In this document: in pieces, positions 746-7,538 of the stretch
How the letters are laid out: each line of letters begins with the position of its first letter
Numbering within the stretch: position 1 is the stretch's first letter
IMG/VR virus record: IMGVR_UViG_2654587509_000013
Direction: 5' to 3' (one strand)
Source: a virus
Taxonomy: Duplodnaviria; Heunggongvirae; Uroviricota; Caudoviricetes
Length of the DNA: 7,633 bases
Program-made: the position numbers and the translations under genes
Notes under the pieces: model-generated
What the model saw: only the letters and a program-made list of their open reading frames with translations
Databases searched by the model: none
Told to the model about the DNA's origin: nothing

Positions 746-1711
746 TTATCCTCTGAAACCAGGCGGAATTTCTGTATCCGGTTCAGAAATATGATTAACA
801 CAACGCTGTACAGGTGAACGCCCCAGGCGGATGACCAGTTCGTCCCATTTTTCGCGGAGCTTTGACGGGCTCATGATGTTTTTTACCCAGAACGGATCCC
901 GCTGTACCCGACCAAACATTTCACAAATTTGTCTGTGGCTTCTGCCATCCAGCATCCGCATTGTGCGCACATCATTGGCCCAGACAGTCCAGTTAGGCTC
1001 TTTTGGTCGCATGATCTCGCCATCATCACTGGCGGCCTGTTCGTAGAGACCCACGATCCGCCCCCATATCCACTGCGCACACGCCAGATCCTCCTGGCTA
1101 CCCCACTGGCGTTTTTTCGCACTAAACACAACTGCGCCAGGGTGCCGGATTAAAAAATCCTGTTCAGCCGTCTGCGGGTCCGGTTGCGAAGCTTCCGGAC
1201 GAAAAGTGTTTTTATTCTCTGTAGTAATCTCTGTTGTATTCTCTGTAGGATCATCGGGCCATTTTGACCCGATGACATTGGGTCGTTTTGAACCAATGGA
1301 GCGTTTCATTTTGACCTCTTCCATCGTGTCATTTTGACCTGATGGAGCGGCGCATTTTGAACCGATGGATTCGCTCAATTTGCCATCATCTAAAAGCTCG
1401 CTCCCATAGTTAATCGTGTAGAAATTGGTCATATCGCGCTTTGATTTATTGAGCTTTTCACAACGCAAGAGCCCCAGCGTTTTCAGACTTGCAAACGCGC
1501 GCTTTAACGTTGACTCTGACCAGAATGGGAACTGTTCCAGCCATTGTTCCGTTGTGTTGTAAATCCAGCGAACACCATCACATTCCATGCCGGAATTGGT
1601 ATCTCTCAACCAGTAATGCAACTGCTGCAACACAATGGCTTCATTTAAGCCAATCTTCATCGCAAGCTGTGTGTTTATAACCAGTGGGCGTTCAGCAAAA
1701 AGAAGGCTCAT
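746..1711 (-). CDS. Phage replication initiation protein (lambda O functional analogue), 321 aa from the first ATG
   Basis: Long ORF at the O position downstream of the Cro-like and CII-position genes. The coding sequence contains a tandem iteron array plus an AT-rich tract, as lambda O contains ori. The ORF track opens at a TTG (1765); the first ATG is at 1711 with a weak GGA-type SD, so the start is uncertain (1711 or 1765). Confidence 0.8.
   Translation of the reverse strand: MSLLFAERPLVINTQLAMKIGLNEAIVLQQLHYWLRDTNSGMECDGVRWIYNTTEQWLEQFPFWSESTLKRAFASLKTLGLLRCEKLNKSKRDMTNFYTINYGSELLDDGKLSESIGSKCAAPSGQNDTMEEVKMKRSIGSKRPNVIGSKWPDDPTENTTEITTENKNTFRPEASQPDPQTAEQDFLIRHPGAVVFSAKKRQWGSQEDLACAQWIWGRIVGLYEQAASDDGEIMRPKEPNWTVWANDVRTMRMLDGRSHRQICEMFGRVQRDPFWVKNIMSPSKLREKWDELVIRLGRSPVQRCVNHISEPDTEIPPGFRG
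1260..1398. repeat. Iteron array, putative phage origin of replication embedded in the initiator gene
   Basis: Direct repeats with consensus CATTTTGA(C/A)CnGATGG start at 1260, 1284, 1307, 1330 and 1353, with a degenerate sixth copy near 1376. Spacing is 23-24 bp. An AT-rich tract at 1203-1250 lies just downstream in the coding direction and carries a 12-bp motif TATTCTCTGTAG at 1213-1224 and 1237-1248, with a degenerate copy between. Confidence 0.7.
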
Positions 1712-4302: not shown

Positions 4303-4491
4303 ATGAAAACGTTATTACCAAACGTTAATACGTCTGAAGGTTGTTTTGAAATTGGTGTCACTATCAGTAACCCTGTATTTACTGAAGATGCCATTAACAA
4401 GAGAAAACAAGAACGGGAGCTATTAAATAAAATATGCATTGTTTCAATGCTGGCTCGTTTACGTCTGATGCCAAAAGGATGTGCACAATGA
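4303..4491 (+). CDS. Hypothetical small protein, 62 aa
   Basis: ATG 4303 with SD GAGGA and a 7-nt spacer. Its stop overlaps the next start (ATGA at 4488-4491), implying translational coupling. Confidence 0.55.
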   Translation: MKTLLPNVNTSEGCFEIGVTISNPVFTEDAINKRKQERELLNKICIVSMLARLRLMPKGCAQ

Positions 4492-4772: not shown

Positions 4773-7244
4773 ATGAGTAAAGTCTTTATTTGCGCCGCTA
4801 TTCCTGACGAACTGGCAACAAGGGAAGAAGGCGCTGTGGCTGTAGCCACAGCCATTGAAGCTGGCGACGAACGCCGTGCTCGAGCAAAATTTCACTGGCA
4901 GTTCCTGGAACATTATCCGGCTGCTCAGGACTGCGCTTATAAATTTATTGTCTGCGAGGATAAACCTGGCATACCCCGCCCTGCCCTCGATTCATGGGAT
5001 GCTGAATATATGCAGGAAAACCGCTGGGATGAGGAGTCTGCTTCTTTTGTCCCGGTTGAGACTGAATCCGATCCGATGAACGTCACTTTTGACAAGCTGG
5101 CCCCTGAAGTACAGAACGCTGTCATGGTTAAGTTCGACACATGTGAAAACATCACCGTTGATATGGTTATTAGCGCACAGGAATTGTTGCAGGAAGACAT
5201 GGCAACATTCGACGGACATATCGTTGAAGCGTTGATGAAAATGCCAGAAGTTAACGCCATGTATCCGGAGCTTAAGTTGCACGCCATTGGGTGGGTTAAG
5301 CATAAATGTATTCCTGGTGCTAAATGGCCCGAAATTCAGGCAGAGATGCGCATCTGGAAAAAACGTCGCGAAGGTGAACGCAAGGAAACCGGAAAATACA
5401 CGTCTGTTGTTGATCTCGCCCGCGCCAGAGCCAATCAACAGTACACTGAAAATTCAACAGGAAAAATCAGCCCGGTCATTGCTGCCATTCATCGCGAATA
5501 CAAGCAGACATGGAAAACACTGGATGACGAACTGGCCTACGCTCTCTGGCCTGGTGATGTGGATGCCGGAAACATTGACGGCAGCATCCATCGCTGGGCA
5601 AAAAAAGAAGTTATCGACAACGACCGCGAAGACTGGAAGCGTATCTCGGCATCAATGCGCAAACAGCCTGATGCCCTTCGCTACGACCGCCAGACTATTT
5701 TTGGCCTTGTCCGTGAGCGTCCGATCGACATTCACAAAGATCCCATAGCACTGAACAAATATATCTGCGAATACCTGACGACAAAGGGCGTGTTTGAGAA
5801 TGAAGAAACAGACCTGGGCACTGTTGATGTTCTCCAGTCATCAGAAACACAAACTGATGCAGTGGAAACTGAGGTATCTGATATCCCAAAAAATGAAACC
5901 GCGCCGGAAGCTGAACCATCTGTAGAGCGTGAGGGGCCGTTCTATTTCCTCTTCGCAGATAAGGACGGAGAAAAATACGGTCGCGCAAACAAACTTTCTG
6001 GTCTGGATAAGGCACTGGCTGCTGGCGCCACTGAAATCACAAAAGAAGAATATTTTGCCCGAAAAAATGGCACATACACGGGCTTACCGCAAAATGTAGA
6101 TACCGCTGAAGATTCAGAACAACCAGAGCCGATAAAAGTTACCGCTGACGAAGTAAACAAAATTATGCAGGCAGCCAATATCAGCCAGCCTGACGCCGAT
6201 AAGTTGCTTGCTGCATCACGTGGTGAATTTGTTGAAGGGATTAGTGACCCGAATGATCCGAAATGGGTTAAGGGGATCCAGACCCGCGATTCTGTGAACC
6301 AGAACCAGCATGAATCGGAACGGAACTACCAAAAAGCGGAACAAAACAGCACAAATGCGTTACAAAACGAGCCAGAAACGAAACAGCCTGAACCAGTGGC
6401 GCAACAGGAAGTGGAAAAAGTCTGCACCGCCTGCGGTCAGACCGGCGGCGGCAACTGCCCTGATTGTGGCGCGGTGATGGGCGACGCAACATACCAAGAA
6501 ACATTCGATGAAGAGTATCAGGTTGAAGTTCAGGAAGATGATCCGGAGGAAATGGAAGGCGCTGAACATCCACACAAGGAGAACACTGGCGGCAATCAGC
6601 ATCACAATAGCGATAATGAAACTGGCGAGACGGCAGATCACTCAATTAAGGTGAACGGTCATCACGAAATCACATCCACCAGCAGGACGTGTGACCATCT
6701 AATGATCGACCTTGAAACCATGGGAAAAAATCCTGATGCCCCGATCATCTCAATAGGTGCAATATTTTTCGATCCGCAAACCGGAGATATGGGACCGGAA
6801 TTTAGTAAGACTATCGATCTGGAAACTGCTGGCGGAGTCATTGATCGGGACACCATTAAATGGTGGCTTAAGCAATCACGCGAAGCGCAATCTGCCATTA
6901 TGACCGATGAAATCCCGTTAGATGATGCACTGTTACAATTACGGGAATTTATCGACGAAAACTCCGGTGAATTTTTTGTTCAGGTTTGGGGAAATGGAGC
7001 CAACTTCGACAACACAATTTTGCGCCGTTCATACGAACGGCAGGGGATCCCCTGCCCGTGGCGTTACTACAACGATCGCGATGTACGCACAATCGTTGAG
7101 CTGGGGAAAGCCATAGACTTCGATGCCAGAACGGCTATTCCATTCGAAGGTGAGCGCCATAATGCACTTGATGACGCCCGTTACCAGGCAAAATACGTTT
7201 CAGTTATCTGGCAAAAACTGATCCCGAGTCAGGCTGATTCTTAA
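4773..7244 (+). CDS. Large multidomain exonuclease protein, 823 aa: unknown N-terminal domain, acidic linker, Cys4 zinc ribbon, C-terminal DnaQ-like DEDDh 3'-5' exonuclease
   Basis: Single 824-codon frame. Zinc ribbon CTACGQTGGGNCPDC (C-x2-C-x7-C-x2-C) at 6423-6467. DEDDh motifs: Exo I DLE at 6708-6716, Exo II NFD at 7002-7010, Exo III H-x4-D (HNALDDA) at 7158-7178. Sits at the exo position upstream of the excisionase-like gene. Related prophage genes are often labelled exodeoxyribonuclease VIII-like, but no PD-(D/E)XK motif or partner annealase is visible here. Confidence 0.9.
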   Translation: MSKVFICAAIPDELATREEGAVAVATAIEAGDERRARAKFHWQFLEHYPAAQDCAYKFIVCEDKPGIPRPALDSWDAEYMQENRWDEESASFVPVETESDPMNVTFDKLAPEVQNAVMVKFDTCENITVDMVISAQELLQEDMATFDGHIVEALMKMPEVNAMYPELKLHAIGWVKHKCIPGAKWPEIQAEMRIWKKRREGERKETGKYTSVVDLARARANQQYTENSTGKISPVIAAIHREYKQTWKTLDDELAYALWPGDVDAGNIDGSIHRWAKKEVIDNDREDWKRISASMRKQPDALRYDRQTIFGLVRERPIDIHKDPIALNKYICEYLTTKGVFENEETDLGTVDVLQSSETQTDAVETEVSDIPKNETAPEAEPSVEREGPFYFLFADKDGEKYGRANKLSGLDKALAAGATEITKEEYFARKNGTYTGLPQNVDTAEDSEQPEPIKVTADEVNKIMQAANISQPDADKLLAASRGEFVEGISDPNDPKWVKGIQTRDSVNQNQHESERNYQKAEQNSTNALQNEPETKQPEPVAQQEVEKVCTACGQTGGGNCPDCGAVMGDATYQETFDEEYQVEVQEDDPEEMEGAEHPHKENTGGNQHHNSDNETGETADHSIKVNGHHEITSTSRTCDHLMIDLETMGKNPDAPIISIGAIFFDPQTGDMGPEFSKTIDLETAGGVIDRDTIKWWLKQSREAQSAIMTDEIPLDDALLQLREFIDENSGEFFVQVWGNGANFDNTILRRSYERQGIPCPWRYYNDRDVRTIVELGKAIDFDARTAIPFEGERHNALDDARYQAKYVSVIWQKLIPSQADS

Positions 7245-7316: not shown

Positions 7317-7538
7317 ATGAGCGAAGTAATCATGATTGTCTCTCCCGGCAAATGGGTATCCGAAGAGCAGTTAATTGCGCTGAAAGGAATAAAAAAAGGT
7401 ACGTTAAAAAAGGCCCGGGAAAAATCGTTTATGGAAGGAAGGGAATATAAGCATGTCGCTCATGACGGTATGCCATGGGATAACAGTCCATGCTTTTACA
7501 ACCTGGAAGAAATTGATCGCTGGATTGAGCGCCAGTAA
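7317..7538 (+). CDS. Excisionase-like small DNA-binding protein, 73 aa
   Basis: 73-aa basic protein directly downstream of the recombination-side exonuclease gene, where xis sits in lambdoid prophages. Assignment is by position and general resemblance to prophage excisionase-like proteins; the integrase is presumably beyond the right edge. Confidence 0.7.
   Translation: MSEVIMIVSPGKWVSEEQLIALKGIKKGTLKKAREKSFMEGREYKHVAHDGMPWDNSPCFYNLEEIDRWIERQ

Follow-up and report, generated by a model that had tools for sequence, protein, structure and literature searches.

A predicted replication origin with a conserved 12-mer block inside the initiator gene of a lambdoid Escherichia coli (pro)phage

Our analysis of a 7,633-nucleotide stretch of viral DNA (IMG/VR record IMGVR_UViG_2654587509_000013, hereafter the window), which is the immunity and early-replication region of a lambdoid Escherichia coli (pro)phage, suggests that positions 1178-1390 are very probably its theta-type replication origin. 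The putative origin lies within the gene for an O-like replication initiator, in the segment predicted to encode a disordered linker between the two domains of the protein. It comprises six 23-bp iterons, three AT-rich 12-mers and a palindrome, all central in the gene between the parts for the N- and C-terminal domains (Table 1). This assignment draws on sequence features and on analogy with the origins of phages lambda and SPP1. The block of 12-mers, together with a co-variation between one initiator residue and one iteron base, lifts the finding above an ordinary origin.

Iterons, 12-mers and the initiator

The starts of the six iteron units are spaced 24, 23, 23, 23 and 23 bp apart. An earlier note on this DNA, made from the letters alone, had reported repeats of 23-bp period, and this period was recovered by Tandem Repeats Finder (period-23 array at 1286-1369, 3.7 copies) and by a repeat search, which placed 23-nt units in register at 1252, 1276, 1322 and 1345 and at 1286, 1309, 1332 and 1355, with spacings of 23-24. 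The consensus given in that note, CATTTTGACCNGATG, was matched with at most three mismatches five times in 1260-1367 and once elsewhere in the 7.6 kb; shuffled windows gave 0.97 ± 1.0 matches, and none of 200 shuffles reached the observed six. Units 1, 2 and 4 are 23-bp palindromes with 10-bp arms around a TTT centre (CATCGGGTCA-TTT-TGACCCGATG), and units 3, 5 and 6 have one good arm only.

Three nucleotides (1249-1251) separate the last iteron from the 12-mers, which read TATTCTCTGTAG, TAATCTCTGTTG and TATTCTCTGTAG on the plus strand, CTACAGAGAATA CAACAGAGATTA CTACAGAGAATA on the sense strand of the gene, and TENTTEITTEN as peptide. Tandem Repeats Finder reported them as a period-12 array at 1216-1248 (2.8 copies). 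The AT-rich tract with 12-bp repeats of its own that had been described beside the iterons is thus present, with a GC content of 0.38-0.42 around 1200-1260. Nearest-neighbour energies, calculated for 36-bp duplexes throughout the gene, put the stability minimum at 1208-1244 (free energy -41.3 kcal/mol, against a mean of -50.7 and a standard deviation of 3.4), which fits the expectation for a DNA-unwinding element (DUE). The gene contains a single GATC, at 1249, and no DnaA box at up to one mismatch. Beyond the 12-mers lies the palindrome, whose counterparts in relatives take the form GTCNGGTTNC-nnn-GNAACCNGAC with one co-varying pair (GC, CG or UA) that is paired in 27 of 27 distinct sequences; these sequences are related and their outer arms were chosen by the search pattern, which leaves just the inner pairs as informative ones. 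In the equivalent position, Staphylococcus phage 37 and Bacillus phage BtCS33 carry GTC..GAC palindromes of their own.

That the gene encodes the initiator had been read from its repeats. The identification holds without reliance on them, through a match to PHROG 391, 'replication initiation O-like' (E = 3.5e-92, residues 35-339 of the 339-residue open reading frame (ORF) against profile positions 11-298 of 298), and through phage annotations in GenBank. Phages HannyBb, mEp460_ev081 and PhiR42_1, deposited as complete genomes, show 97% identity to positions 700-1800, and in them the gene is named 'replication initiation O-like protein', 'DNA replication protein O' or 'Primosomal protein I', the last because of the match of its tail to DnaT (below). 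Further PHROGs match the N-terminal part (residues 19-186) and the C-terminal part (residues 205-327; PHROG 2357, 277 and 2514) separately. No Pfam family, Phage_rep_O included, matched the initiator at E ≤ 0.01, and no NCBIfam family scored above its cut-off.

The N-terminal domain is predicted to be a winged helix. Residues 14-100 of the AlphaFold2 model are arranged as helix-helix-strand-strand-helix-helix-strand-strand (predicted local distance difference test score, pLDDT, about 70), a profile of the domain matched only winged-helix regulators in the PDB (best E 2.6e-4), and the top Foldseek matches in the PDB are winged-helix structures, including the plasmid Rep-DNA complex 5kbj and the N-terminal domain 4pql (E about 0.03-0.04). 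Ser67 falls in the first turn of the predicted recognition helix (66-78). Across 65 distinct N-terminal domains, which are related sequences and not independent events, residue 67 tracks the iteron core, with Ser accompanying TCA, Asp GCA and Lys ACA. Ser67 occurs with GGTCAAAATGACC-type iterons in Escherichia, Klebsiella, Citrobacter, Xenorhabdus, Morganella and Serratia; Asp67 with GGGCAAATTGCCC iterons in Pantoea, Rouxiella and others; and Lys67 with GGACAATTTGTCC iterons, a few of these proteins (L090, L093 and L114) having mixed ACA/TCA arrays. Such co-variation is what co-evolving protein-DNA specificity would predict, though it is a correlation only. Klebsiella phages share with the window only positions 1216-1666, that is, the N-terminal domain and the iterons, at 79% identity, the remainder of their gene being unrelated; the two parts thus appear to be inherited together as one module. 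Combining these sequence comparisons with the predicted fold, we infer that the initiator binds the iterons via its N-terminal domain.

The tail of the protein resembles the C-terminal end of E. coli DnaT. It matches positions 160-179 of the NCBIfam DnaT equivalog (E = 0.006; 16.2 bits against a cut-off of 201) and residues 159-179 only of the DnaT chains 2ru8, 6aep and 9zbt_D in the PDB, and its -IPxGFRG motif is kept in relatives with unrelated C-terminal domains. We rejected the idea that the initiator is itself a DnaT, as only its last 20 residues match, below the NCBIfam cut-off, and full DnaT domains are absent. No P-, DnaC- or DnaB-like gene follows the initiator, in the window and HannyBb alike. 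The tail suggests that the initiator docks on whatever the tail of DnaT docks on, and it may mimic a host primosome docking peptide. A 2026 cryo-electron microscopy paper on the preprimosome (PMC13377028) describes no role for the extreme C-terminus of DnaT.

The 12-mer block as a conserved DNA element

The segment that contains the origin (residues 108-178, gene nt 322-534) coincides with a stretch of the AlphaFold2 model that is disordered (109-177, pLDDT 24-33). This raises the question, already posed as a possible refutation in the earlier note, of whether the repeats merely encode a flexible repetitive linker (SIGSK..., TENTTEITTEN), the DNA repeat being a by-product without function in cis. 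The segment is translated, it yields reiterated IGSK and TE-x-T peptides, and the 12-mers are read in one constant frame across all lineages seen, as such a linker would have it. However, the units of the iteron array lie in codon phases 0, 2, 1, 0, 2 and 2, so that their core is read in three frames (GSK, GQND, VKM). The claim that the reading frame shifts through the array therefore stood, but reiterated IGSK as its general product did not, IGSK being encoded only by the three phase-2 units (offsets 69 and 24 nt) and the others reading GQND, VKMK and GKLS. Diversity at third codon positions was compared in 49 distinct homologous genes, gathered by gene similarity and not by repeats, and was 0.116 in the N-terminal and 0.105 in the C-terminal domain versus 0.029 in the iterons and 0.000 in the 12-mers. 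Codons within the block are fixed as well: Glu is GAG in 66 of 66 cases, against 233 of 474 (49%) elsewhere in the same genes (Fisher 4.5e-19), Ile is ATT in 22 of 22, and Thr is ACA in 85 of 117, against 102 of 386 elsewhere. Moreover, the Bacillus plasmid pBSG3 carries the block and three iterons outside any long ORF. In lambda itself the equivalent peptide is dispensable and the DNA is needed in cis, in-frame deletions of 12 and 15 bp in the AT-rich region inactivating the origin in cis but leaving an O protein that, though shortened, is able to complement (PMC6022878). A peptide linker without DNA function is thus highly improbable and, because of the three-phase reading and the frozen third codon positions, the repeats are, on this sequence evidence, constrained as DNA and not as a peptide repeat. 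Rfam gave no match in 700-2500 at E ≤ 1, so no known RNA accounts for the conservation. A sigma-70 promoter scan found nothing in the origin, its sole match being cro-side (TTGACT-18-TAGCAT, 2480-2451), and the reading of an origin-internal promoter was dropped.

The block (sense ACAGAGAWTACW, 2-5 copies) recurs beside unrelated iteron arrays of 22-24-bp period. Seven aligned sequences showed no change at all in the 36-bp block, although they included Pantoea phage AH07, which has differing iterons. An alignment-based search for related loci gave only near-identical E. coli loci, and the diversity described here came from DNA-pattern scans. A search for exact TCTCTGTAGTANTCTCTGTTGTANTCTCTGTA, with one genome per species, returned 36 loci, those outside the Enterobacterales including an Oceanospirillum maris isolate and metagenome-assembled genomes (MAGs) labelled Aeromonadaceae, Ventosimonas, Desulfuromonas, Lachnospiraceae and Pseudobutyrivibrio. 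The block was in the TE-x-TTE frame at all 36, and at nearly all of them the surrounding ORF was initiator-like, a few being truncated or disrupted (L093, L112). A tandem array of lineage-specific sequence stood just upstream, with a period of 22-24 bp in nearly all. To avoid the bias of an exact pattern, IMG/VR was scanned with back-translated TE[NT]TTEITTE in any codons; this yielded 120 loci in 22 clusters with unrelated iterons and identical codon usage throughout. Within a 12-mer unit only the 8th and 12th bases vary.

Among GenBank phages, a blastn search with the block matched 88 records, from hosts including Escherichia (with Stx1a and Stx2a phages), Klebsiella, Pantoea, Erwinia, Acinetobacter, Pseudomonas, Burkholderia, Bacillus, Staphylococcus and Geobacillus. 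Among the matches listed, the genes that hold it are annotated as O-like, DnaD-like, replication initiation or primosomal, or are unnamed or annotated as regulators. The six records that we inspected (BtCS33, Staphylococcus phage 37, IME-AB2, DC1, PT9.1 and Stx2_14040) each have iterons of their own, of 22-23-bp period, directly before the block, and their own host-typical flanks. The arrangement of iterons followed by the block was therefore seen at 36 genome loci, in 22 IMG/VR clusters and in six named phages. We propose to group as ACAGAGAWTACW-block origins those in which at least two 12-mers lie within about 30 nt downstream of iterons of 22-24-bp period in the gene for a YW-type winged-helix initiator; the window has three units, 3 nt after the last iteron. 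Block-bearing N-terminal domains fall into several subfamilies that are still alignable (Q..YW, L..G), and the C-terminal domains belong to no fewer than four unrelated types (window type, Phg_2220_C, DnaB_2/DnaD-like and the DnaT DNA-binding domain).

When canonical units were counted in the peptides of 93 single-domain representatives of the N-domain family (50% clusters, at least 200 amino acids), 41 proved to have two or more and 65 one or more. As judged from these sequences, the block is not universal in the family and evolution can dispense with it; lineages that retain it preserve its nucleotide sequence. A further 38 representatives (proteins P0125-P0229; 220-880 amino acids) have two tandem winged-helix copies and represent a different architecture of the same DNA-binding domain. 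They show no canonical TExTTE block (one single unit-like match), and many appear GC-rich by composition.

Plasmids also carry the element. In pBSG3 (8.4 kb, NC_014104; L251), one of the small plasmids of Bacillus velezensis and B. amyloliquefaciens, three iterons CCTACAGGGAAA and three perfect units of ACAGAGATTACT lie at about 1480-1620, outside any ORF of more than 88 residues and some 540 bp upstream of the rep gene; they might form an origin of phage type, or a decoy, that lacks an initiator of its own. Plasmid2 of Nostoc sp. HK-01 (L252, about 1380-1800) has a 470-residue initiator-like gene upstream of dnaB with a degenerate block, ACAGAGATTACATCAGAGATTACTTCAGAGACTACT, which is preceded by repeats of about 16-nt period (AATTTACCAAAAAGTG) and not of 23-bp period. 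In a plasmid search the DNA that holds the block was for the most part annotated as phage-type genes or not at all, with a single case of a 'replication protein'. Two records look like mislabelling or contamination and were excluded from the host-range evidence. In one, a 'Bacillota bacterium' MAG contig (JAEWTL010000124; L106), about 280 nt around the origin and the initiator protein are identical to the window. In the other, 'Xanthomonas phage SU1' (OR842880; L247), the initiator is almost the same as in Staphylococcus phage 37, and the genus given in the record, Rockefellervirus, is one of staphylococcal phages.

What, then, do the 12-mers do? They occupy the position of the lambda and SPP1 DUEs, and homology between modules breaks exactly there. 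Their sequence is preserved exactly from one phylum to another, whereas that of the iterons varies without such restraint, so that ease of melting is probably not their only role. We infer that a conserved partner reads their sequence, as single- or double-stranded DNA. Precedents exist for initiators that read DUE repeats, namely TrfA on the 13-mers of RK2 (as single-stranded DNA), the DnaA-trios, and RctB on ATCA repeats. Candidate partners would be a conserved surface of the winged-helix initiators that holds one melted strand, a DnaB-family helicase or the DnaG primase. Each unit has CTG on the antisense strand and most have CTA on the sense strand, 12 nt apart, and this spacing is a speculative hint of DnaG. 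A DnaA-trio array was rejected by inspection, with only two of the four triplets per unit fitting, as was an IHF or DnaA site.

An alternative is that the block is a linker for recombination at the boundary between N- and C-terminal modules, serving their exchange and not read during initiation. The Klebsiella phages part from the window at the block. About 1000 E. coli genomes share only 1101-1212, which is the C-domain side up to the block; one locus (L165) joins the N-terminal domain and iterons of family B (Stx2_14040-type, L250) to a window-type C-terminal domain at the block; and at least four unrelated types of C-terminal domain follow it. As far as these sequences tell, the block is a crossover point for initiator module exchange. 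Nonetheless, crossovers are expected at any conserved stretch between diverged modules, and second-order selection is unlikely to hold some 30 nt identical across Proteobacteria and Firmicutes, with degenerate cyanobacterial copies. The block is also the duplex-stability minimum beside the iterons, the corresponding AT-rich DNA of lambda is required in cis for initiation, and the sequence is kept in pBSG3, where no gene fusion is at stake. We therefore consider a linker that is not read to be unlikely. That the 12-mers are a hitherto undescribed, sequence-specific signal has better prospects, although we put it forward tentatively, at well below even chances. We are equally guarded about the wider proposal that the block is an origin element of a very large superfamily of O-like and DnaD-like phage replicons in Proteobacteria and Firmicutes, degenerate in a cyanobacterial plasmid. 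A literature search with the 12-mer DNA (as 18-mers) and with 10-residue peptides found no paper, shorter strings found only unrelated papers among those listed, and nothing on the block was found in the literature on pBSG3, pLS32 and replisome organizers; the conserved element may be new to the literature.

Origin function, natural variants and genomic setting

If ori-lambda and SPP1 oriL are taken as models, the initiator would be produced through early transcription that runs rightward from the cro-side promoter, and dimers of its winged-helix domain would bind the palindromic iterons, with residue 67, at the start of the recognition helix, reading the outer base of the core. Six sites at 23-bp period would wrap the DNA into an O-some-like complex. 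On supercoiled DNA, the resulting stress would melt the adjoining, least stable 36 bp, that is, the three ACAGAGAWTACW 12-mers, and the C-terminal domain and DnaT-like tail would recruit the host helicase machinery.

Several points weigh against this account. This particular prophage may be cryptic. Of the six iteron units, only three are fully palindromic, and the window's palindrome, with six perfect base pairs, is weaker than those of relatives. The AlphaFold2 model is of low confidence overall (mean pLDDT 53.6), so that we left the fold of the C-terminal domain uninterpreted, and the Foldseek matches have weak E-values, with TM-scores of about 0.45-0.5 on the target for 5kbj and 4pql. The N-terminal domain has neither a Pfam family nor detectable sequence homology with lambda O (hhalign probability 0.2), and the sequences behind the co-variation and pair counts share ancestry. 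Finally, some genomes hold natural variants that have lost four iterons, which means either that two are enough or that these prophages are replication-defective. In these 290-residue initiator forms (P0023, L255:3290-3440) an exact 93-bp in-frame deletion runs from iteron 5 to iteron 1 and leaves two iterons; the prophage genes around this variant appear intact. Another initiator (P0100) has a fourth 12-mer, and in E. coli genome H118 a 401-nt query matched 413 nt, a 12-nt difference in length. The 290-residue forms and the fourth 12-mer indicate that the direct repeats expand and contract in frame, as in lambda r mutants.

The array might also be a binding platform and not a start site, used for autoregulation or titration of the initiator, for copy-number handcuffing, for exclusion of related phages by a resident prophage, or by another regulator (Cro, the cII/YdaT-like or the Ren-like protein). 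Plasmid iterons do serve copy control as well, the module sits in resident prophages of many host genomes, pBSG3 has iterons and 12-mers without an initiator gene, and inhibition of related phages by cloned phage origins has been described (PMC3349717, PMC4488673). Such roles would be additional to origin function, however, and not alternatives to it. The adjacent stability minimum, the palindrome and a position that matches ori-lambda and SPP1 oriL are features of origins and not of operators, and the co-variation is with the initiator's own N-terminal domain. We thus regard a platform alone as quite improbable, and favour the origin.

Clustered at 50% identity, the N-domain family still numbers over 10,000 representatives, and Pfam has no model for the window-type domain. 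A rule combining a YW-type winged helix, an array of 22-24-bp period and ACAGAGA 12-mers would find origin and initiator in thousands of prophages, and the correspondence of Ser, Asp and Lys67 to T, G and A is a testable recognition code. As a rare origin-opening element whose DNA is conserved exactly across phyla amid divergence, the 12-mers could reveal what is read in a DUE. If true, the block would be a portable, host-independent 'open here and load' signal, as well as a fixed joint for the exchange of origin- and host-specific modules. With no helicase-loader gene present, the DnaT-like tail points to a way in which the phage could hijack the restart primosome of its host.

The genes around the initiator (Table 1) follow the order cI, then cro, cII, O-like and ren-like, which is the immunity/replication arrangement. 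Of 5426 complete E. coli genomes, 1864 (about one third) contain window positions 1100-1500 with at least 80% coverage; in these the gene is mostly labelled 'hypothetical protein', and the copy in strain DA33133 is 100% identical over the same positions. If the TTG at 1765 is taken as the start, the initiator ORF overlaps the cII/YdaT-like gene by 74 nt; the HannyBb annotation starts at the ATG at 1711. In some database proteins (P0002-P0004, 448 amino acids) the YdaT-like gene and the initiator are fused. The long, unannotated N-terminal part of the 823-residue protein has a CxxC...CxxC motif, and its counterpart in the locus of the 290-residue form (L255) matches Pfam YdfE_N and YdfE_C. A 13-nt tandem repeat, AAACGTTAATACC (1.9 copies), at 4307-4331, at the start of a small ORF, is probably due to chance.

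Table 1. Predicted features of the window (aa, amino acids; HTH, helix-turn-helix)
Feature	Position	Strand	Remarks
Iteron array, six 23-bp units	1252-1274, 1276-1298, 1299-1321, 1322-1344, 1345-1367, 1368-1390		Gene nt 322-460
Three 12-mers, candidate DUE	1213-1248 (starts 1213, 1225, 1237)		Gene nt 464-499
Palindrome	1178-1200		Gene nt 512-534; GTCCGG-(11)-CCGGAC, or 10-bp arms with 2 mismatches and a 3-nt loop; hairpin scan
Initiator gene	746-1711 (ATG form, 321 aa); ORF 746-1765 from TTG	minus	ORF list; PHROG 391
N-terminal winged-helix domain, presumed iteron-binding	1391-1711	minus	aa 1-107; AlphaFold2, profile and Foldseek matches
C-terminal helical domain, exchangeable, presumed replisome-recruiting	791-1177	minus	PHROG matches aa 205-327; AlphaFold2 helices 183-305
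C-terminal tail ISEPDTEIPPGFRG, 14 residues	749-790	minus	Resembles C-terminal end of E. coli DnaT
DUF977/Ren-like gene	283-705	minus	Just after the initiator in gene order
cII/YdaT-like gene	1692-2213	minus	
P22-Cro-like gene	2197-2451	minus	
HTH repressor	2451-2909	plus	
823-aa protein	4773-7244	plus	C-terminal Rv2179c-like 3'-5' exonuclease domain (E 2.3e-67)
DUF1233 excisionase	7317-7538	plus	

Comparison with known origins

The origin is a further member of the known lambda/SPP1 kind, an 'initiator-solo' module whose N-terminal domain has no Pfam family. It resembles ori-lambda in lying in the middle of the initiator gene, between a DNA-binding N-terminal and a recruiting C-terminal domain, in its dyad-symmetric iterons, in the AT-rich region and the GTC..GAC palindrome that follow them in the direction of transcription, and in the gene order cro-cII-O. 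In the GenBank record of lambda the iterons start at 39034, 39054, 39078 and 39101 (spacings 20, 24 and 23; gene O nt 349-433), and a palindrome, GTCAGAG(14)CTCTGAC, follows the AT-rich tract in the same place as 1178-1200 of the window. Consistent with the likeness to lambda drawn in the earlier note, the succession of N-terminal domain, iterons, AT-rich block, palindrome and C-terminal domain is that of the annotated ori-lambda. The two differ in that the window has six contiguous 23-bp units with 10-bp arms whereas lambda has four 18-bp iterons, and in that its AT-rich part is a defined array of three ACAGAGAWTACW units, to which the tract of lambda is only loosely similar. Unlike lambda, the window has a Ren-like DUF977 gene in place of a P-like loader gene, its initiator ends in a DnaT-like tail, and the N-terminal domain matches neither Phage_rep_O nor, by hhalign, lambda O. 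'Lambda-like' thus refers to architecture and, by analogy, to mechanism, not to membership of a protein family. The six-iteron origins of the Stx phages 933W and P27 are likewise among the nearest known systems (PMC7466680).

SPP1 oriL is a proven origin in which AB-box iterons and an adjacent AT-rich DUE lie in the G38P gene, between the N- and C-terminal domains (PMC5737612). G38P shares its C-terminal domain, Phg_2220_C, with the 12-mer-bearing relatives from Klebsiella, Pantoea and Staphylococcus. The window protein has another C-terminal domain, and the SPP1 N-terminal domain and iterons are unrelated to its own; the ACAGAGA block was looked for in SPP1 oriL and is absent, the AT-rich part there being AACAATGATAAC-like and, as in lambda, bearing only a loose similarity to the block.

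Plasmid initiators of the RepA_N type, such as the staphylococcal Rep of 5kbj and 4pql, have a winged-helix N-terminal domain that is among the best, if weak, structural matches, although the window protein has no match at the level of sequence family. In plasmids of this type the origin consists of central repeats inside the rep gene. Short direct repeats in a DUE beside initiator sites are likewise found in the 13-mers of oriC and RK2, in DnaA-trios and in the ATCA repeats of Vibrio cholerae chromosome 2. The 12-mers described here differ from these DUE repeats in their sequence, in their 12-nt period, in lying within a coding region, and in being kept exactly across phyla while the iterons and initiator domains beside them diverge.

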